DNA of 64,000 bases from Spirochaetia bacterium (GCA_965140585.1 OZ223269.1:1-64000), one strand, 5' to 3'; shown: positions 888 to 15,307, counted from the first letter of the stretch. Notes: a model not told the origin generated them from the letters alone. A program made the numbers and translations.

Positions 888-2696
888 TTGAACGGATATA
901 TTGGAAAGATTCTGCGGATAGATCTCAGTACCGTAAATATATCAACAGAAAAACTTGATCATGAAGCTGCATTAAAATATATAGGCGGCAGAGGTCTGGG
1001 TACTTACCTTATGACAAAGGAGACTTCACCGGAGGTTGATGCCCTCTCAGCTGAAAACAAACTGATGGTTGTCACCGGTCCGCTTACCGGCACACCTACG
1101 CCAACAGGCGGCTGGTACATGGTAGTTACAAAATCACCGCTTACCGGCACCATAGCATCATCCAATTCCGGAGGGTACTGGGGCGCTGAGCTCAAGTTCG
1201 CCGGTTATGATGCCATCATAATTGAGGGAAAGGCTGAAAAGCCTGTTTATATTGCTATCGAAGATGAGCGCGTTGAGATTCGCGATGCCAGACATCTCTG
1301 GGGAAAGCTGGTTTCGGAAACTACCGAAGAACTGCAGAAAGAAATTCCCGCAAAGGCGAGGGTAATGACCATCGGACCTGCAGGCGAAAACCTTTCACCA
1401 ATTGCAGCAATCATGAATGATCTCTGGAGGGCTGCAGGCCGTTCTGGTGTCGGGGCTGTTATGGGCTCTAAAAATCTTAAAGCCATTACGGTGAAAGGCT
1501 CAGGTAAACCGGCTGTAGCCGATGAAGATGCACTAAAAGAAGTTAATAAAAGATGCATGAAGCAGATAAAGTAAAACGGTGTTACCGGCCAGGGTCTTCC
1601 TACCTACGGAACCGCTGTTCTTGTAAATATAATTAATGAAAACGGGGTATTTCCTACAAATAATTTTCAGACATCACAGTTTGCTGATGCTGAAGAAATC
1701 AGCGGTGAAACAATGTCTGAAAGCTACCTGGTCAATAAAGACCCCTGCTACCGATGTCCGATTGCCTGCGGCAGATACTGCAAGGCTGATGACATTGAGG
1801 GCGGCGGACCTGAATACGAAACCGTCTGGGCCTTCGGAGGAGACTGCGGCGTTTCGGATATGGGAGCGGTAATTAAGGCCAATTACTGGTGTAATGAAAC
1901 CGGTATGGATACAATTTCTGCAGGATCAACAATTGCTGCCGCAATGGAACTGTATCAGAAGGGATATGTTGATGACTCTGAACTTGATGGTGTTTCCTTA
2001 AAATTCGGCGATGCAGAAGCTGTAGTTGAGTGGACAAAACGCATGGGCCGAGGAAAAGGCTTTGGAGCCAAAATGGCTTTGGGTTTCTACAGACTGACCG
2101 AATCGTACGGTGTACCTGAACTGTCCATGTCTGTAAAGAAGCAGGAGATACCGGCATATGACCCGCGAGGTATTCAGGGCCAGGGTCTGCAGTACGCTAC
2201 ATCAAACAGAGGCGGCTGCCATGTTCGCGGCTACCTTATTTCTCCGGAAATCCTCGGACTGCCGGAAGCCCTGGACAGGTTCAAGCTTGAGGGAAAAGCC
2301 GCCTGGGCAAAGATTTTTCAGGATCTGACTGCATTAATAGATTCATCAGGACTCTGCCTTTTTACTTCTTTTGCAATGGGAGCCGGAGATTATACGGATA
2401 TGCTGAATGCTGTTCTGGGTACCACCTGGTCTGCCGATGATATACTCGCGGCCGGTGAACGCATTTATAATATAGAAAGAATATACAATTTGAAAGCTGG
2501 AATTGAGCCTTCTCAGGATACACTGCCGAAAAGACTGTTTACCGAAGAAATTCCCGACGACCCATCGAAGGGATGGATACACAAGTTATCAGTTCTGCTC
2601 CCCGAATATTATAACCTGCGAGGCTGGGGCCTTGACGGAATACCTACTGCTGAAAGAGTTGAGTCTCTGGGTATTAAGCTTCCGGAAGGCCTATGA
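888..2696 (+). pseudogene. aor: Aldehyde:ferredoxin oxidoreductase (tungstopterin AOR family) interrupted by an in-frame TAA at 1572-1574
   Basis: ORFs 888-1574 and 1713-2696 are in the same frame and the intervening codons read NGVTGQGLPTYGTAVLVN; motifs TKSPLTG, AAGRSGVGAVMGSKNLK, CYRCPIACG, GPEYET, SNRGGCH, DSSGLC. Confidence 0.9.
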
Positions 2697-2917
2697 CTGT
2701 AACAGTAAGGCTCTTTGCCACTCTCCGAAACGGACGTGGCAAAGAGTTAAAGCTGGATTTTGAAGAAAGAGCTAACGTCCGGGATATCATTGAAAAACTG
2801 GATATCCCTAAAGAGGAGGTTGCGATTCTTCTTATTAATGGAAGAACCGGAACTATGGACAGGGAACTCACTTCAACAGATATTGTTTCTCTCTTTCCCC
2901 CTGTCGGAGGGGGGTGA
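2693..2917 (+). CDS. MoaD/ThiS-family sulfur carrier protein
   Basis: 74 aa, VRLFATLR...FPPVGGG with C-terminal di-glycine; start overlaps the aor stop. Confidence 0.9.
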   Translation: MTVTVRLFATLRNGRGKELKLDFEERANVRDIIEKLDIPKEEVAILLINGRTGTMDRELTSTDIVSLFPPVGGG

Positions 2918-3312: not shown

Positions 3313-3523
3313 CGCAAATATTTGTTAAATTATTTGCGGGTGCCGAAAATTCCATGCGCTGACATTGAGGACGGGAAGCCTGTTCGTACCAATTCAGAAA
3401 AAATCTGTGAGGTGCCGCGGTCGCGCAAGCTGTAAAATAAATTTATTTTTAGGTTGCTGCGGTGGAATTATCTTCTTGAACTTTCCTTTCTTTAATCCGT
3501 ACCAGCCTGTACGGTGGAATTAT
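3313..3523 (+). ncRNA. Candidate structured cis-regulatory leader of the mtmB-like/ECF operon (class unassigned)
   Basis: GC-rich island in an AT-rich spacer; several hairpins; CGGTGGAATTAT repeated at 3460-3471 and 3512-3523, both complementary to AATTCCA at 3348-3354. Confidence 0.45.
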
Positions 3524-4889
3524 GATTAATTACCTTGAAATATCTGAACGTGCCTCGAAAGGCAGAAAGATGTCAAAAAATGACTGGGATTTTCTTATTG
3601 TCGAAAAGGCTATGAAGCTTGTAGACAAGTACAGCTTAAGCTGGAACCCTGAAAAGGTTCTTGAAGACAACCCGGAGCTTGCCGACAGGCTTTATAATGC
3701 GGGCCGGGAACTCCTGCTTGATACCGGAATATACTACCTGTCAGAAGGCACCGTGCTGGAGCTTTCCGCGGACGAAATAGATTCTGCTGCGAAGGCCATG
3801 AACAAATCACTTGTGATGGGTGAGGGGGCTCAGGCCTATACTCTGCATCCGCGAAAACCCCTTGATGAGCGTCCGCCCGCAGTGTGGGCCGGGAATCCGG
3901 GGGCTCCGACTCCCGAGCGAGTTTTCAAGGCAACGGTCAAAAGCTGGGCAAAGGAGCCTGTTGTTGATCTTATTACCTGCGGCTCCCTCATCGATGTCGA
4001 CGGAGTTCAGGTGCGTTCAGGCGAAGTCAGTGAACTCTATGCTTCCAAACGGGAACTTTCAATTCTGAAGGAAGTCCGCGAAGAATGCGGCCGCCCCGGA
4101 ATAGGAATGCTCGGTGCAGAAAGCAGTGTTACCGAAATTGGCGATCTGGCATCAGCTCATCCAGAGCTCCTCAGATCCTGCGATTCTCACCTTGTTGCAA
4201 TGTATAATGAACTTATGATAGATCGCGGCAATATGCTGCGTGCAGCCAATTCAGTGCACTACGGCATGGCTAATGCCTCGCTTGCTACTGTCATGGTAGG
4301 AGGGCTTGCCGGTGATGCTCCGGGTGCTGCGGTCGTACAGATAGCATCCTTTCTTGCAGCCAATATAATCTGTCTTGCTGACTACCATCTCTGCCACCCC
4401 ATACATATCAGGTATGTGGCTACATCCGCCCGCGGCTGCATGTGGCTTCAGAGCATGGTCTGCCAGGCCTTTGCTCGGAACGCCCCTGCAATTATTGTCG
4501 GTGATATATATCCCAAGAGCGGAGCAATGACAAAGGAAGTTCTGTATGAAGTTGCCGCCAATACTGTGGCGCTCAGCGTGGCAGGCGGTCACCTTGAAGG
4601 TGTAGGTTCCGCTGATGGAAGTGTCCCTCACGGAACGGGAATTGAGGTCCGCGTGATGGGAGAAACCGGTCATGCGGTTACAGGTCAGCGGATAGACTTT
4701 GAGGAAGGAAACAGGATTATTCTGGAACTTCTTTCAAGGTATGAGTTTGTGTTTGAAAAAGAGGGTGGAAATCCGGGGCTTCCATTTGATGAAGCATATG
4801 ATATGGATACTTGCGAGCCGAAAGCTGAATGGCTTTCCATCTATGAAGAAGTAAAGGCAGAATTAGCCAACATCGGCTTAAAATTATAG
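3522..4889 (+). CDS. Monomethylamine:corrinoid methyltransferase (MtmB) family protein lacking pyrrolysine
   Basis: 455 aa; ADRLYNAG, GRPGIGMLGAESS aligns by eye with archaeal GRPGMGV-Pyl-GPETS; no in-frame TAG. Confidence 0.85.
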   Translation: MINYLEISERASKGRKMSKNDWDFLIVEKAMKLVDKYSLSWNPEKVLEDNPELADRLYNAGRELLLDTGIYYLSEGTVLELSADEIDSAAKAMNKSLVMGEGAQAYTLHPRKPLDERPPAVWAGNPGAPTPERVFKATVKSWAKEPVVDLITCGSLIDVDGVQVRSGEVSELYASKRELSILKEVREECGRPGIGMLGAESSVTEIGDLASAHPELLRSCDSHLVAMYNELMIDRGNMLRAANSVHYGMANASLATVMVGGLAGDAPGAAVVQIASFLAANIICLADYHLCHPIHIRYVATSARGCMWLQSMVCQAFARNAPAIIVGDIYPKSGAMTKEVLYEVAANTVALSVAGGHLEGVGSADGSVPHGTGIEVRVMGETGHAVTGQRIDFEEGNRIILELLSRYEFVFEKEGGNPGLPFDEAYDMDTCEPKAEWLSIYEEVKAELANIGLKL

Positions 4890-4903
4890 AACAGGAGAAA
4901 ATA

Positions 4904-5542
4904 ATGGCTCTGTACACGGTTTTTAACGTTGCGGTCCTGGTTGTTCTTGGGCTGGTTGCCAGACTCACGGACAAGAATGTCTTTGAAAAAGAGAAGGGTG
5001 GATATTCCACACGGAACCTTGTTGTAGTTGCAGTACTTGCTGCAATTGCAGGTGTAATCAATACCGGTGTAGGCAACATCTGGTATCTTGCCAACACTTC
5101 ACTCGGACCTCTGGGCGGAGCCCTGATTCAGGGAATGTTCATGTGGGCATATATACTTGCTGTATTTATGGTAAGAAAGCCCGGTGTAGCGCTCGCTTTC
5201 GGAATTATAGAAGCTGCCACAGAAGTTCTTCTCGGCAATGCTGCCGGAGTCGGTACCCTCGGATGGGGTATCTCACAAGGACTTGCTATTGAATTCATAC
5301 TGATTCTTACAGCATATTCACGCTTCGGTCTTATGACAGCCCTGATGGCAGGTATTGCATCTTCCCAGTTCGGTACACTGTGGAGCTCTGTTTTCTACGG
5401 ATGGGATCCCGCCTATTCAAAGGATGTCTGGATTGCCGTTCCTGTCAATATGATTTCAGGTGCTGTATTCAGCGGTCTCCTCGGTTATTTCCTTGCAGGA
5501 CGAATCGCAAAGACCGGTCTTATAAGATCAGCGAAGAAATAA
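4904..5542 (+). CDS. ECF transporter S (substrate-binding) component, YkoE-like
   Basis: Hydrophobic ~6-7 TM, VRKPGVALAFG...EVLLGN...QGLAIE; upstream of ECF A and T genes. Confidence 0.8.
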   Translation: MALYTVFNVAVLVVLGLVARLTDKNVFEKEKGGYSTRNLVVVAVLAAIAGVINTGVGNIWYLANTSLGPLGGALIQGMFMWAYILAVFMVRKPGVALAFGIIEAATEVLLGNAAGVGTLGWGISQGLAIEFILILTAYSRFGLMTALMAGIASSQFGTLWSSVFYGWDPAYSKDVWIAVPVNMISGAVFSGLLGYFLAGRIAKTGLIRSAKK

Positions 5543-5549
5543 TTGAGCT

Positions 5550-7307
5550 ATGCCGGGTATAATAGAACTTAAGGATGTAACATTCACCTTTGACGGGGAA
5601 GAAAAGCCTGTATTAAGCGATCTCAGTTTTTCACTTCCGGCCGGAAGTTTCTCAATACTTGTCGGCCCCGGAGGAAGCGGTAAATCTACTCTCTGCAACC
5701 TTCTTAACGGACGAATTCCCCATCTTATTCCCGGCAGGCTTAAAGGATCCGTGCTGATCGACTCTATGAACAGCGCGGATACCGAAATGAAAGAGCTCTC
5801 CTGTTCAGTCGGATACGTGTTTCAGGATCCCGAGAATATGTTCGCTACCTTGTCGGTTGAAGATGAGATAGCTTTCGGTCCCGAGAACCTGCTTCATCCT
5901 GCGGAACAGATCAAGAGCTCAGTTGATGAGCTTCTTGATTTAACGGAGCTTGCACCTTACAGAAAGAATCTTGTCTGGAATCTTTCCGGCGGACAGATTC
6001 AGAAGCTTGGTCTGGCTTCGGTGCTTGCAATGAAACCCAAAATCATCGTCCTTGATGAACCGACAGCCAACCTTGATCCTGCTGCCACAAGACAGGTCCA
6101 TGAGTTGATACTCAGTCTGCGGAGTGAGGGGATAACAGTACTTCTCGTTACCAGGGAGCTCGATGATTTTATGGCCGAAGCGGATCAGATTCTTGTTCTA
6201 GAAGGCGGAAAACTCGCAGCAGCAGGTGAGCCCTACAGTCTTCTGTCTGAAAAAGGAGAGTATATCAATTCTCTTGGTATATGGCTTCCCGAAACAGTTG
6301 AGATAGGTCTGGGTCTTAAGAAGCTCGGGTACACAGTGTCTGGAATTCCCATCCGTATAGATGAAACCCTTAAACTTCTTGAAGATACAGGGCTGACTGC
6401 GTCAGTTAAGTGTCTGAACGGCCGCCCTCCTAAAAATGATGAAGCTCCACAATCGACCACGGGTTCAGTGTCGGAAGATATCCTGATAAAGGCTGAAAAT
6501 CTTCGCTACTCCTACGGCGCGGGGCTGTATGCTTTAAAAGGTGTCTCTTTTGATGTAAGAGCTGGTGAGATGCTTGCTGTAGTCGGCAGAAACGGTGCAG
6601 GTAAGAGTACTCTTGCCAAACTTCTAATCGGTCTTAATAAATGCACAGAAGGGAGTCTGATGCTGATGGGGAAGCCTTCAGCCAAATGGAAAATCCCGAA
6701 GCTTGCAAATCATATCGCTCTGGTTTTTCAGAATCCCGAGCATCAGTTTCTTACAGACACAGTATCAGAGGAAATTGAGTACAGTCTGAAGTCCAAGGGT
6801 GTGTTTGACAAGGATGAGATGGCTGCTGAACTGAAACGGCTTCTCGAGGAGCTTGATCTTACAGATGCTGCAGATTCTCATCCCTTTGCACTGAGTGCCG
6901 GAAAAAAACGCAGGCTGGGTGTTGCTACGATGCTTGTAGGTAATCCCTCCGTCCTGATTGTAGATGAACCGACATACGGACAGGATCGTGAGATGACCCG
7001 CAATCTTATGAAGCTTATGAAAGACATTCAGAGCCGCGGAGTAGCCGTGATCATGATAAGTCATGATATGAGGCTTGTTGAGGAATATGCCGACAGGGTG
7101 ATTGTTCTTAGTGAGGGCAGAAAATATTATGACGGAATACCCTCAGAGCTCTTCAAGAAGCCTGAGCTCCTGCAGCAGTCGAATCTTCAGCCGACCCTGC
7201 TGAGCGAAATTCTGAAAAAACTCGAACAGAACGGACTTGAAATTAACGGATGCATCCCGGGCAGCGGGATGTTTCTGGAGCTGCTGAGCGCGGGAGGAAA
7301 GATGTAA
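5550..7307 (+). CDS. ECF transporter fused double ATPase (A-A')
   Basis: Two Walker A motifs (GPGGSGKST, GRNGAGKST), VFQDPE/VFQNPE Q-loops, LSGGQ/LSAGK signatures, two DEPT motifs. Confidence 0.92.
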   Translation: MPGIIELKDVTFTFDGEEKPVLSDLSFSLPAGSFSILVGPGGSGKSTLCNLLNGRIPHLIPGRLKGSVLIDSMNSADTEMKELSCSVGYVFQDPENMFATLSVEDEIAFGPENLLHPAEQIKSSVDELLDLTELAPYRKNLVWNLSGGQIQKLGLASVLAMKPKIIVLDEPTANLDPAATRQVHELILSLRSEGITVLLVTRELDDFMAEADQILVLEGGKLAAAGEPYSLLSEKGEYINSLGIWLPETVEIGLGLKKLGYTVSGIPIRIDETLKLLEDTGLTASVKCLNGRPPKNDEAPQSTTGSVSEDILIKAENLRYSYGAGLYALKGVSFDVRAGEMLAVVGRNGAGKSTLAKLLIGLNKCTEGSLMLMGKPSAKWKIPKLANHIALVFQNPEHQFLTDTVSEEIEYSLKSKGVFDKDEMAAELKRLLEELDLTDAADSHPFALSAGKKRRLGVATMLVGNPSVLIVDEPTYGQDREMTRNLMKLMKDIQSRGVAVIMISHDMRLVEEYADRVIVLSEGRKYYDGIPSELFKKPELLQQSNLQPTLLSEILKKLEQNGLEINGCIPGSGMFLELLSAGGKM

Positions 7308-8101
7308 TGGCTGACAGTAATTTTCTTCAGTACAAAGAGCGGGGATCGGCACTTAACCGTACCTATCCACTGGTTAAGCTCATCTGGGTCTTTATTGTAG
7401 CTGTCGGACTCTTCATATTTAAAACACCGTACAGTGGTGCAGTGATGTTTGTCTTTATGCTTACTCTGGCTGTCACCGCAGGAAGAATTTCTTTACTAGA
7501 GATTTTTCGCAGCGGTCTGATAGTCTTCGGTTTGGGCATCCTTCTGATGATTTTCCATCTGTTTGCAGATCCTGGTGAACCTCTGATGAAAATAGGATTT
7601 ATTACCATTACAGATAACGGAATCTTTCAGGGACCAATATTCTTTTTCCGGCTCTCAGTGATTGTTCTTGCAAGTTTTGTTCTAATCTGGACAACAGATA
7701 CCAGGGACTTGATGCGTTCACTGGTAAAAGCCCGTATGCCCTACCGCTATGCATTTACCATCTTTCTGGCACTTCGCTTTCTGCCGCTTATTCAGCGCGA
7801 GGTTAATGCCGTCCGTTCTGCTCATGCCATCCGTGGAAAAGCCTCAGGTTCGGGACTGAGCCATCGCTTTGCCTTGTGGCAGCGCTATGTATTTACCATT
7901 CTTGTAAACGGTCTTAGAAAGGCGGAAATCACAGCTGATGCACTTGACTGCAGGGCTTTCGGTCATCATTCAGAACGTACCTATGTGAAAGATGTATTCT
8001 TTCATGGACGAGATATTCTACTCCCTGTTTTTACTTTAATCCTGCTTGGTTTACTGATAGTTCTGGAGCATTACCCGCTCATTCCCTTTCCCTCGGCTTA
8101 A
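7307..8101 (+). CDS. ECF transporter transmembrane T component
   Basis: P(L)VKL start, ALRFLP, AHAIRG and ALDCRAF X-Arg-X motifs; ATG overlaps the ATPase stop. Confidence 0.9.
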   Translation: MADSNFLQYKERGSALNRTYPLVKLIWVFIVAVGLFIFKTPYSGAVMFVFMLTLAVTAGRISLLEIFRSGLIVFGLGILLMIFHLFADPGEPLMKIGFITITDNGIFQGPIFFFRLSVIVLASFVLIWTTDTRDLMRSLVKARMPYRYAFTIFLALRFLPLIQREVNAVRSAHAIRGKASGSGLSHRFALWQRYVFTILVNGLRKAEITADALDCRAFGHHSERTYVKDVFFHGRDILLPVFTLILLGLLIVLEHYPLIPFPSA

Positions 8102-8135: not shown

Positions 8136-8558
8136 ATGAAAAAACTTGCAATACTTACAGTCCTGGTTATTCTAATCAGCAGCTGCGGCAGCAGTCTCAA
8201 AGGAACTTATGCAGATCTTGCTACTGAAAATGAAATACCCGGCAGTGTCTATCAATATATATTCATGGATGACGGCAGTTTTACCTTTAACTGGAAGGTT
8301 CCCGGGCTCGAGACTGGGGAAGAGTACGATCTTGATATCTTTATGAAGGGTACTTTTTTGATTGCAGATGATATAATAACTTTTACGATAACCGAAGAAA
8401 CAAGCCGGATTCTCGGACAGAGTCCTGAAGCAGATGTGCCCTGGACAGTTGATATGCAGATTATCAATAAGAACAGTAAAAGTATTGAAATCAGCAGGCT
8501 GGCAGATGATTCATCTGAAAAAGAGGATTACAGGGTAATAAAACTTACCAGAAGATAA
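8136..8558 (+). CDS. Hypothetical lipoprotein
   Basis: AGGAG RBS; MKK + hydrophobic core + ISSC lipobox. Confidence 0.75.
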   Translation: MKKLAILTVLVILISSCGSSLKGTYADLATENEIPGSVYQYIFMDDGSFTFNWKVPGLETGEEYDLDIFMKGTFLIADDIITFTITEETSRILGQSPEADVPWTVDMQIINKNSKSIEISRLADDSSEKEDYRVIKLTRR

Positions 8559-9062: not shown

Positions 9063-9092
9063 CAGCCTGCTTTTCGGCGGGCTGTTTTTTTT
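9063..9092 (+). terminator. Intrinsic terminator
   Basis: CAGCCTGC-TTTTCG-GCGGGCTG followed by a T run. Confidence 0.8.
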
Positions 9093-13123: not shown

Positions 13124-15307
13124 ATGAGAGAAGATATTAAACCGGCTGAAATTCTTGAGATCCTTAAAAGCAGGATATCCGGATTTTCCCCTTCAACAGG
13201 CGAATCTGAAATCGGCAGAGTAATTCAGGCCGGTGACGGTATTGCACAGGTATGGGGACTCGATAACATCCTTTCAGGAGAGCTGGTAGAGATTGATATA
13301 GAGGACGGCAGTATTGTTCACGGCATGGTTATGAACCTCGAAGAGGAAACCGTCGGAGTAATTCTGTTTTCTGATTATGAGAAAGTTGTAGAAGGCTCCA
13401 ATGTCCGCCGGACAAAGAGAGTAGCTGAAGTTCCGGCAGGAATGGAGCTTCTTGGCAGGGTTGTAGATCCTCTCGGCAATTCACTTGACGGTCTTGGGGT
13501 AATTAAAACCGATACCATGAACAGGGTAGAAGTGAAGGGCCCCGGAATAGTTGCCAGGCGTAACGTTGAAGAGCCCCTCCAGACCGGTATCAAGGCTATC
13601 GATGCTATGATTCCAATCGGCCGTGGTCAGCGTGAACTGATAATCGGCGACCGTAGAACCGGAAAGACAACAATTGCAATTGATACCATCATCAACCAGT
13701 CAAAGACCGAGGGTGCAGACCGGGTTTACTGTGTCTATGTTGCAATCGGTCAGAAGCGCTCATCGGTTGTTCAGCTTGCTGAAACTTTCAAGAAGCATAA
13801 TGTTATGCAGAATACAATTATTGTAGCTGCAACAAGCTCGGATCCTGCCTCGCTGCAGTATCTTGCTCCCTATGCGGCAACCGCTATGGCGGAATATTTC
13901 CGCGACAATGGAATGCATGCCCTTGTGGTTTTTGATGATCTAACCAAGCATTCACAGGCTTACAGAGAGCTTTCGCTTCTTATGCGCCGCTCACCGGGGC
14001 GTGAAGCCTATCCGGGCGATATCTTCTACCTTCACTCAAGGCTCCTTGAGAGAGCCGCAAAAATGAGCGATGAACTAGGCGGTGGCTCACTTACAGCGCT
14101 TCCAATTATAGAAACACAGGAAGGCGATGTTTCGGCATACATTCCTACTAATATAATTTCAATCACTGACGGACAGATCTTTCTTGAAGCGGATCTTTTT
14201 AACTCGGGACTCCGTCCGGCTATTAATGTCGGTATCTCGGTTTCCCGTGTCGGCGGTGATGCGCAGCTTAAGGCCATGAAGCAGACCGCAAGCTCGCTCC
14301 GTATAGATCTGGCTCAGTTCAGGGAGCTTGCCGCCTTCATGCAGTTCTCTTCCGACCTTGATGCTTCTACGAAGCAGCAGCTTAACCGCGGTGAAAGACT
14401 GACCGAGATCCTCAAGCAGCACCAGTATGCGCCTATCGATGTATTTAAACAGATAATGATTCTGAAGGCCGGAACCTCCGGGCGACTTGATAAATACAAG
14501 ACTGCAAAGCTTCTTCATTATCAGTCTGAGCTTTTTGACTATCTTGAATCTGATTGTGCATCCTTCATGGAGAAGCTTCGCAGCGAAAAGGCCTTCACTA
14601 AAGAGCTTGAGGCAGAAGTTGAGAAAATCTTTGACAAATTTGAAGAGAAGTTCAGAGAGGATTCTGCAGACAGCGACATTGATTCCGGTTATACACTTAA
14701 TCTCTCAATGGCTCTAAGTCAGCGTACTTCCAGAATCAGCAGGGATATGTTCAAGCTTGTCGAACGTCTTACAGCAAGAGAGCTTGCATCACCTTCACTG
14801 GAAACTGAACTTGAAGAAATTATGACCGGAAAAGACCAGGTTGAAACAGACCGCTTTGAAGACCTTGTACTTTCATGTGAGATTCTCGATTATGATAAGA
14901 GCAATGATCTCAAGAAGCTTTTCTCTACCGCTGCAGAGCATCTTCAGTATGATCAGATGAGCAAGTCCGATATAAATAAGAAACTTATAGCCAGGGAAGA
15001 ATCCTCTTCAACAGCGCTAAGTCCATATTTTGCAATACCTCATATAGTTGTCGAAGGTGAGAATATCTTCAAGATGCTGATTGTCCGCTCAAAGAAGGGT
15101 ATAAAGTTCAACGATCAGATGTCGGAAGTTCATTCCATTTTCTTCCTTGCAGGCTCGCAGGATCAGAGACACTTTCACCTGGTTGTAATATCTTCACTCG
15201 CACAGATTGTTCAGAACCAGGCATTTGAGAAGAACTGGCTGGAAGTTGAGAACGCGGATGATATCAGAAAACTGATTATTGATATAAAAAGAAGCATAGG
15301 CAAGTAA
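13124..15307 (+). CDS. atpA: F1 ATP synthase subunit alpha fused to a C-terminal PTS EIIA (fructose/mannitol/Ntr-type) domain
   Basis: [45 protein letters not shown] in aa 1-~510; extension contains [38 protein letters not shown]. Confidence 0.93.

Follow-up and report, generated by a model that had tools for sequence, protein, structure and literature searches.

The first 64,000 nucleotides of a sequence from a Spirochaetia bacterium (GCA_965140585.1 OZ223269.1:1-64000, or C6:1-64000 in the contig numbering used here; this whole stretch is called the window) contain an operon in which a gene for a pyrrolysine-free homologue of the methylamine methyltransferase MtmB (non-Pyl MtmB) is followed by the genes of an energy-coupling factor (ECF) importer and preceded by a structured leader RNA (Table 1). 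It is considered moderately probable that the operon is an import-and-demethylate module, in which a substrate-specific methyltransferase (MT1) acting as a demethylase is combined with the importer of its own substrate, probably an N-methylated purine, under the control of a ligand-sensing leader. A module for uptake plus demethylation, rather than for bulk methylamine catabolism, had been proposed from the window's sequence (the original prediction), and it is supported by the fold of the enzyme, the leucine at its pyrrolysine position, the recurrent pairing of enzyme and importer, and the co-occurrence of one subfamily of substrate-binding (S) components with the enzyme.

A non-Pyl MtmB and its interchangeable importers

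The product of the first gene matches the Pfam family of MtmB (PF05369) with an expectation value (E) of 3.3e-92 and 310 bits (cut-off 25) over profile positions 4-450 of 450, and HMMER aligns its residues 7-453 with the chains of Methanosarcina barkeri MtmB (1L2Q/1NTH) at 30% identity (E 3.7e-59). An AlphaFold2 model built from 40 homologues (predicted local distance difference test score, pLDDT, 91.6) superposes on 1NTH in Foldseek with E 8e-43, a template modelling score of 0.95 and a root-mean-square deviation of 1.6 Å over 453 columns, which bears out the MtmB fold that had been proposed; the whole-profile match and the triosephosphate isomerase barrel fold both place the protein in the MtmB family. 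Pyrrolysine 202 of M. barkeri MtmB, written X in 1L2Q/1NTH, aligns with Leu197 of GRPGIGM-L-GAESS (codon CTC, 4110-4112), as had also been claimed, and leucine occupies this column in 121 of 121 homologues. The two marks of a pyrrolysine MtmB in the strict sense are therefore lacking: CTC stands in place of an in-frame UAG at M. barkeri residue 202, and no cognate MtmC adjoins the gene, there being no PF02310 match in the window. Non-Pyl MtmB homologues are widespread in bacteria, as a word-indexed search that scored 8000 candidates returned 1059 relatives. Identity to the window's enzyme is 56-97% for the best 120, which are nearly all uninterrupted and full-length (452-477 aa), with two shorter ones (407 and 432 aa); their source names are Spirochaetes, Anaerolineae, Blautia, Bacteroidetes, Planctomycetota and Deltaproteobacteria. 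A single MtmB-family gene is present in the 4.85-Mb genome of the window, which is 98.5% complete; the product of this gene would be, by function, a corrinoid-dependent MT1. In one Spirochaetota family (f19), 15 of 17 genomes carry distant MtmB-family paralogues, up to four or more, which are 26-31% identical to the window's enzyme, sometimes in tandem and free of internal stops (G022, G036, G048, G089, G127 and others); these are assigned to a separate non-Pyl expansion.

Recurrence of the pairing was assessed at 83 orthologue loci (53-97% identical; three from reference genomes and the best 80 of 198 metagenome matches), which with the window make 84 loci and, after dereplication at 90% enzyme identity, 57 lineages; neighbourhood counts use a distance of 6 kb, and ECF genes were sought by tblastn with the window's proteins. 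Orthologous genes for the S component (55-98%), the double ATPase (A-A', 52-95%) and the transmembrane coupling (T) component flank the enzyme gene in 14 of the 83 loci. After dereplication, ECF genes are beside it in 8 of the 57 lineages (the window being counted among the 57), with S components 55-86% identical; one contig (L087) stops after the S gene, and in L122/L123 the ECF genes are divergently oriented relative to the enzyme gene. Among 151 relatives of the genome, 8 have an orthologue of the enzyme; S orthologues at 80-99% identity are found in exactly four other genomes, where they flank the enzyme gene, and in the remaining 146 of the 151 the S component is at most 32% identical. 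A sample of 400 other genomes of the phylum yielded no enzyme orthologue and no member of the S subfamily, the best matches being 31% identical in both cases. The predicted conservation of the pairing is thus upheld by eight lineages and four further genomes of the class, and within the genomes searched the S subfamily strictly co-occurs with the enzyme; because the pairing recurs and the S subfamily co-occurs in this way, the pairing is taken to be real and to travel as a unit. At one locus (L140; G457:C1:156000-166000, approximately 5750-6590), the leader RNA, enzyme gene and S gene are intact and the energising part of the ECF system looks truncated, the match to the fused ATPase being 211 aa long and that to the T component 105 aa. 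Recurrent neighbours at ECF-type loci are PNPOx-like, BtpA, GntR and GH3 proteins; genes for small PNPOx-like split-barrel flavoproteins lie near the enzyme gene in three lineages (L047-L050, L102/L105/L106 and L145), and BtpA/SgcQ in one lineage.

The ECF system is one of three or four interchangeable importers found beside orthologous enzymes. A recognised transporter lies at most 6 kb from the enzyme gene in 36 of the 57 lineages; where each flank comprises 3 kb or more of sequence, the count is 21 of 25. By lineage these are the ECF system (8), a Bmp/PnrA-type ATP-binding cassette (ABC) system consisting of a double ATPase, two BPD_transp_2 permeases and a Bmp binding protein (12), a 510-residue permease with ten transmembrane segments and without a Pfam family (13), and DUF4153 (3). 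The ABC system or the permease occupies the place of the ECF genes in other lineages, the closest relatives among them. On a quick maximum-likelihood tree of the enzyme (IQ-TREE with Shimodaira-Hasegawa-like approximate likelihood ratio support, not fully searched), the importer types interleave, the ECF type requiring 7 changes for its 8 rows: the window's clade (99% support) includes two ECF types (the window and L047) and a permease type (L002, an Oceanispirochaeta), and its sister clade (96%) is of the ABC type. Within the class, the ABC type (G449) and the permease type (G461) occur besides the ECF type; G506/L145, with an enzyme 66% identical, has none of the recurrent importers and only a gene of the major facilitator superfamily 2 kb off. 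As orthologous enzymes have swapped importers, it is argued that these importers bring in the same kind of compound, namely the substrate of the enzyme.

The same exchange bears on whether the ECF system might import a cofactor or vitamin (corrinoid, cobalt, or hydroxymethylpyrimidine (HMP)/thiamine), supplying the B12 enzyme or merely lying next to it, with the methyl donor entering otherwise. A B12 importer would make sense beside a B12 enzyme, the best models for the T component are CbiQ-type, and the S component belongs to PF09819, in which its only solved relative is the HMP/thiamine protein YkoE (5EDL, E 1e-16, the sole PDB relative); but sister lineages replace the ECF system with a nucleoside-type ABC system or a permease, not with B12 or thiamine transporters, and no gene of the S subfamily was found in genomes without the enzyme. 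No thiamine pyrophosphate (TPP) or cobalamin riboswitch is present in the window or at 12 other ECF-type loci; the genome's single TPP riboswitch (C6:1070941) precedes the gene for a solute-binding protein belonging to another ABC system, the two cobalamin riboswitches of the genome are located elsewhere, and the S component is 27-32% identical to YkoE-family proteins of other spirochetes. The operon has what defines a group I (dedicated) ECF system of the YkoEDC type (a PF09819 S component, its own A-A' and a T component in one operon), and the window has neither the TPP riboswitch nor the thiamine gene context that would mark a thiamine transporter. Import of a vitamin or cofactor is accordingly rated improbable.

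Purine linkage, corrinoid partners and the probable substrate

The neighbourhoods of the orthologues suggest that the enzyme family sits in purine uptake and salvage. An adenine deaminase gene (TIGR01178, 648 bits against a cut-off of 472) lies within the counting distance in 8 of the 57 lineages, mostly directly adjacent to the enzyme gene, and genes for DeoD/Udp-type nucleoside phosphorylases (3 lineages) and GntR/UTRA regulators (6 lineages) are also found near it. Rfam scans, which took in 52 of the 83 loci, detected a purine riboswitch in 8 loci representing 6 lineages, with scores of 57.9-80.2 bits where the gathering score is 37. At L066, this riboswitch stands at the head of a tight operon encoding adenine deaminase, the MtmB homologue and the permease; in the other five lineages, it is situated between the gene for the enzyme and those of the ABC system (L003, 6993-7095; L062, 1483-1585; L064, 9395-9497; L077, 9481-9583, and L099, 9486-9588; L090, 3117-3219, and L095, 2262-2364). 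In the junction before P1, beside the specificity nucleotide, all seven between-gene riboswitches depart from the A-C of the Rfam consensus by having G-C, and they may be a variant with altered ligand preference; the L066 riboswitch keeps the usual A-C.

These associations indicate that the substrate is probably an N-methylated purine, for example N6-methyladenine. The simplest reading of the linked genes is that removal of the N-methyl group lets adenine deaminase act, the resulting hypoxanthine feeding back on the riboswitch. N6-methyladenine would fit the chemistry because its methylamino group is borne on a ring carbon, as in the adduct of pyrrolysine with methylamine; the substrate itself would then supply what pyrrolysine gives to free methylamine, which would explain the hydrophobic leucine. 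In the proposed sequence of events, the YkoE-like S component, with its own ATPase and T component, would import a scarce N-methylated heterocycle, the best candidate being an N-methylated purine base or nucleoside; the non-Pyl MtmB, as substrate-specific MT1, would pass the methyl group to a Co(I) corrinoid protein encoded elsewhere, from which it would go to a second methyltransferase with homocysteine or folate as the acceptor; and the demethylated purine would enter salvage. Corrinoid dependence and the direction of methyl flow are predictions. A search of one literature library found no published link of MtmB homologues to adenine, ECF transporters or riboswitches.

The corrinoid partners of this scheme were sought by a profile search of the whole genome. 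In agreement with the original prediction, the window has none of their genes, as judged by the absence of matches to PF02310 (B12-binding), PF14574 (RACo/RamA), PF01208 (URO-D) and PF00809 (pterin-binding). In L118, L122 and L123, a cognate-type corrinoid protein, a homocysteine S-methyltransferase and a RACo activase follow the enzyme orthologue, and in L122/L123 orthologous ECF genes lie alongside these partner genes. The best match to the L122 corrinoid protein in the window's own genome is 48% identical and is encoded at C1:782.5 kb, beside a RACo/RamA activase, which makes it the best candidate for the methyl acceptor. The gene cluster there (G000:C1:780957-787452, L016 6958-13453) encodes a PocR/AraC regulator, the corrinoid protein (211 aa), a URO-D methyltransferase (457 aa), a CobW GTPase and RACo (608 aa), and is likely to be the partner set of the enzyme, acting in trans. 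Homologues of homocysteine methyltransferase are encoded on contig C7 and MetH on contig C2, none on the window's contig. Classification of the C1 cluster as a type 1 mlp cluster (MGC) was considered and rejected, because it has a single URO-D gene and the definition requires at least two Mlp genes (PMC10418091).

Several observations weigh against the N-methylated purine module. No purine gene was found in the window's operon or at any ECF-type locus, so that for the window the purine assignment depends on orthology (53-71% identity) and on the interleaved importers of the quick tree, and subclades could differ in substrate; moreover, the genome has no adenine deaminase of the TIGR01178 kind (0 matches to PF13382 at the stated completeness). 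The specificity position of the purine riboswitches is C (C74) in all, which makes them guanine/hypoxanthine-type, not adenine-type, by their sequences, and in 5 of the 6 lineages they come after the enzyme gene, which implies control of the ABC genes rather than of the enzyme. The permease as a nucleobase carrier is a lead drawn from its fold and an automatic name: its model (pLDDT 71) has the UraA/UapA/SLC26/BicA fold, and among its nearest Atlas clusters one is automatically named AGZA xanthine/uracil permease; but the permease family (c3) has no Pfam or NCBIfam match even at E 10, and hhalign against the genome's own PF00860 Xan_ur_permease is negative, with a probability of 0.1%. The UraA-type fold also carries anions in SLC26/BicA, and binding proteins of the Bmp family also bind non-purine ligands; the one NCBIfam match of the Bmp protein is weak, 51 bits to a "B6" model the cut-off of which is 400. 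A corrinoid protein adjoins the enzyme in only 3 of the 57 lineages (L118; L122/L123; and L113-116, with the corrinoid protein only), and the leader RNA described below has been seen in no more than 6 lineages, all of one class. Finally, the sole non-Pyl MtmB with a demonstrated function acts on tetramethylammonium and choline.

That protein is the archaeal MtqB, reported in PMC13044021 (2026) as the first non-Pyl MtmB of any kind to be given a function, the roles of the others being said there to "have remained elusive". The original prediction had called the substrates of non-Pyl MtmB proteins poorly defined; the description still suits most clades, which the same paper terms "of unknown function", and no longer suits MtqB. 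By analogy, the window's enzyme might demethylate choline, tetramethylammonium or a related N-methyl osmolyte that the ECF system imports; in line with this, the characterised non-Pyl MttB relatives named in PMC13044021 all use quaternary amines, and the best NCBIfam models for the corrinoid protein of L118, L122 and L123 are MtgC-type, albeit below their cut-offs. However, no betaine/choline-type transporter recurs in the 57 lineages, among families present in at least three loci, the importers seen instead being the YkoE-like ECF system, the Bmp/PnrA ABC system and the UraA-fold permease; amine catabolism has no use for adenine deaminase or purine riboswitches; and MtqB is placed in PMC13044021 near the pyrrolysine-containing MtmB proteins. 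Demethylation of a quaternary amine is therefore regarded as unlikely. A search of the full text of PMC13044021 for such terms found no mention of a transporter, a purine context or a Spirochaete.

Still less likely, to the point of being rated very improbable, is that the enzyme demethylates free monomethylamine, released for instance from N6-methyladenine by the adenine-deaminase homologue acting as a methyladenine deaminase. The enzyme does have the family and fold of MtmB, and an "adenine deaminase" homologue of Bacillus subtilis is described as acting on N6-methylated adenine compounds (PMC8643624); against this, pyrrolysine is replaced by an invariant leucine, the window's genome lacks the deaminase, which is nearby in only 8 of the 57 lineages, and a dedicated high-affinity importer makes little sense for an intracellular product.

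If the substrate is a methylated purine, as preferred here, the enzyme would be an anaerobic, cobalamin-dependent counterpart to the oxidative and hydrolytic removal of N-methyl groups from nucleobases, nucleic-acid turnover would be linked to one-carbon metabolism, and the clade would bear on the divergence of pyrrolysine enzymes and their pyrrolysine-free relatives. The clade also offers an experimental route to the substrate, through a dedicated S protein, a candidate riboswitch and a shortlist of possible substrates drawn from the neighbouring genes.

The leader RNA

The leader is a new RNA element, found in the genomes searched only upstream of this enzyme gene. The upstream regions of the window, L001, L002 and L047-L050, otherwise unalignable, have in common an identical stretch of 22-26 nt, and their alignment contains a three-stem core with the invariant segment GAGGACGGGAAGCCTGTTC. 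RNAalifold finds compensatory changes in 7 of 20 pairs; in 10 sequences from 6 lineages, pairing holds in 95.5% of cells, slid controls reaching 32-52%, and the core of all 10 is surrounded by an outer helix (AATTCC.. with ..GGAATT), in which AT/AT changes to GG/CC. Since these sequences come from only 6 lineages, the covariation statistics are modest. A covariance model (R1) matches the window, L001, L002 and L047-L050 alone among the 84 sources, with no copy outside the window's clade, and in the 151 relatives it matches five genomes, once each; in three of them (G437, G457 and G517), the others being the window's own and one of the same genus, the match lies approximately 140-150 nt upstream of the enzyme orthologue, after which come the ECF genes. 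The element is present in 5 of the 8 genomes that have an enzyme orthologue (those at least 68% identical) and in 0 of the 143 that do not, is upstream of the enzyme gene in 10 of 10 occurrences, and is single-copy in the window's genome. Upstream of the enzyme gene in L055, L079, L096, L087 and L122, the other ECF-type lineages, no motif in common with the window was detected. A known riboswitch was considered for the leader and rejected, as no Rfam family matches: nothing reaches the gathering score across the whole window, and at 2900-3600 matches up to E 10 are at chance level.

Its conserved multi-stem structure, compensatory changes and fixed position before one gene family make the leader a candidate riboswitch. 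The 3' strand occurs a second time across the ribosome-binding region and the ATG at 3522, and in the minimum-free-energy fold of 3345-3530 (z -2.2) the 5' AUUCCAU pairs with this second copy, an alternative partner for the 5' strand of the leader. Such duplication of the 3' strand over the ribosome-binding site and start codon, and its use by the minimum-energy fold, suggest a translational switch: the leader would probably sense a small molecule and regulate translation according to whether the 5' strand pairs with its internal partner or with the ribosome-binding region. A more specific possibility, offered tentatively and thought somewhat doubtful, is that the leader is a new class of riboswitch for a methylated purine (N6-methyladenine or its nucleoside), which would switch on oxygen-independent, B12-dependent N-demethylation by the non-Pyl MtmB. 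If so, anaerobes would have an undescribed route for recycling modified nucleobases from decaying DNA and RNA, and a ring-bound methylamino group would substitute for the pyrrolysine-methylamine adduct.

Erm enzymes methylate the adenine at position 2058 of 23S rRNA. The invariant GAGGACGGGAAGCC at 3367-3380 of the leader equals the 23S rRNA segment around A2058 except for two changes, one of them at A2058 itself, the rRNA segment being printed as GAGGACGGAAAGACC in the primer sequences of PMC7449152; the likeness is probably a coincidence.

Operon layout and comparison with known systems

The four open reading frames (ORFs) of the operon lie where the original prediction placed them (Table 1), and its statement that the intergenic gaps are 14 bp or less agrees with measured gaps of 14 nt and 7 nt, the last pair overlapping. 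The overlap of the ATPase and T genes exists in the longest-ORF reading; an internal ATG at 7307, which would leave an overlap of 1 nt, is probably the true start of the T component; alignments with orthologues from outside the genus take in 230-261 of its 283 residues. The ATG of the S component at 4904 is preceded by AGGAGAA, and its orthologues align from residue 1. The fused ATPase matches TIGR04520 with 417 bits (cut-off 315) and TIGR04521 with 399 bits (cut-off 330), and contains two PF00005 stretches.

Table 1. Positions of the operon genes, the leader RNA and neighbouring small ORFs in the window
Feature	Position	Strand	Evidence or remark
MtmB-family methyltransferase without pyrrolysine, 455 aa	3522..4889	+	PF05369, PDB, Foldseek
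ECF S (substrate-binding) component, YkoE-like, 212 aa	4904..5542	+	PF09819, E 2.4e-25
Fused ECF ATPase EcfA1-EcfA2, 585 aa	5550..7307	+	TIGR04520 and TIGR04521
ECF T (transmembrane coupling) component, 283 aa	7250..8101	+	PF02361 CbiQ, E 1.2e-33
Conserved structured 5' leader RNA, candidate riboswitch	3345..3470	+	Similarity, RNAalifold, covariance model
Leader outer helix, AATTCCAT pairing with GTGGAATT	3348-3355 with 3462-3469	+	6-10 bp
Leader inner three-stem core	3345-3434	+	
Invariant 20-mer of the leader, TGAGGACGGGAAGCCTGTTC	3366-3385	+	
Second copy of GGTGGAATTAT (first copy 3461-3471)	3513..3523	+	12-nt self-match
Small lipoprotein-like ORF	8136..8558	+	Sequence; no Pfam family
ThiS/MoaD-like ORF, 74 aa, C-terminal GGG	2693-2917	+	E 1.6e-11; between oxidoreductase gene and leader
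HicB-like antitoxin ORF, 67 aa	3021-3224	+	26.6 bits, just below the Pfam cut-off of 27

The lipoprotein-like ORF begins 34 nt past the T gene with its own AGGAG and may be co-transcribed with the operon, there being no intrinsic terminator of weight between the operon start and the first terminator-like site after the operon (9063-9084); it is outside the conserved module, being conserved solely in the 97%-identical relative L001 among the loci compared by tblastn. Upstream, an aldehyde:ferredoxin oxidoreductase gene (888-2696, + strand) is interrupted by one in-frame TAA at 1572-1574 (...MKQIK*NGVTGQ..., the asterisk being the stop), where L001 has GAA (Glu); the TAA is interpreted as a nonsense mutation or assembly error, not recoding. 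Downstream, an ORF for the alpha subunit of ATP synthase (13124-15307, + strand, 727 aa) has a C-terminal phosphotransferase system EIIA_2 domain (residues 592-719, E 9e-22), an unusual fusion.

Compared with known systems, the enzyme has in common with M. barkeri MtmB (1L2Q, 1NTH, 1TV2) the Pfam family, a full-length alignment, a superposable fold, and the DSH and NEL motifs past the strand that bears pyrrolysine. It differs in having the invariant Leu197 of its clade in place of UAG-encoded pyrrolysine, a bacterial host, no adjoining MtmC, and linkage to an importer instead of methanogenesis genes. The importer resembles YkoEDC of B. subtilis (YkoE 5EDL) in architecture, one operon encoding the PF09819 S component, the fused double ATPase and the T component; but its S component is of a distinct subfamily, at most 32% identical to the YkoE-family proteins of other spirochetes, and the importer genes form an operon with the enzyme gene instead of with thiamine genes. 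Expression of ykoEDC is controlled by a TPP riboswitch, whereas none is present at the window. The purine riboswitch (RF00167) regulates the importer or the whole operon beside orthologues in six lineages, and the window's leader stands where the riboswitch of L066 stands; the leader nevertheless differs from it in architecture and conserved core, and has no Rfam match up to E 10.

MtqB/MtqC of Methanococcoides methylutens Q3c is a further precedent (PMC13044021): MtqB, too, belongs to the MtmB family without having pyrrolysine; it methylates the corrinoid protein cognate to it, and illustrates that such enzymes accept substrates with the N-methyl group already on a larger molecule. Unlike the window's enzyme, it is archaeal, adjoins its own corrinoid protein and acts on tetramethylammonium and choline. 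A pocket of conserved Met, Cys and aromatic residues marks the MtqB branch. The non-Pyl MttB-type systems (MtgB and relatives) have the same general composition, with a substrate-specific MT1, a corrinoid protein, a second methyltransferase and a RamA-type activase; MtgBCD in particular is described as a split methionine synthase of Ruegeria pomeroyi (PMC12478193), and the homocysteine S-methyltransferase partner in L118, L122 and L123 parallels it. In the system of the window, by contrast, the MT1 belongs to the MtmB superfamily rather than to that of MttB, the partners are unlinked in the genome, and the substrate class is probably that of a nucleobase, not a betaine.

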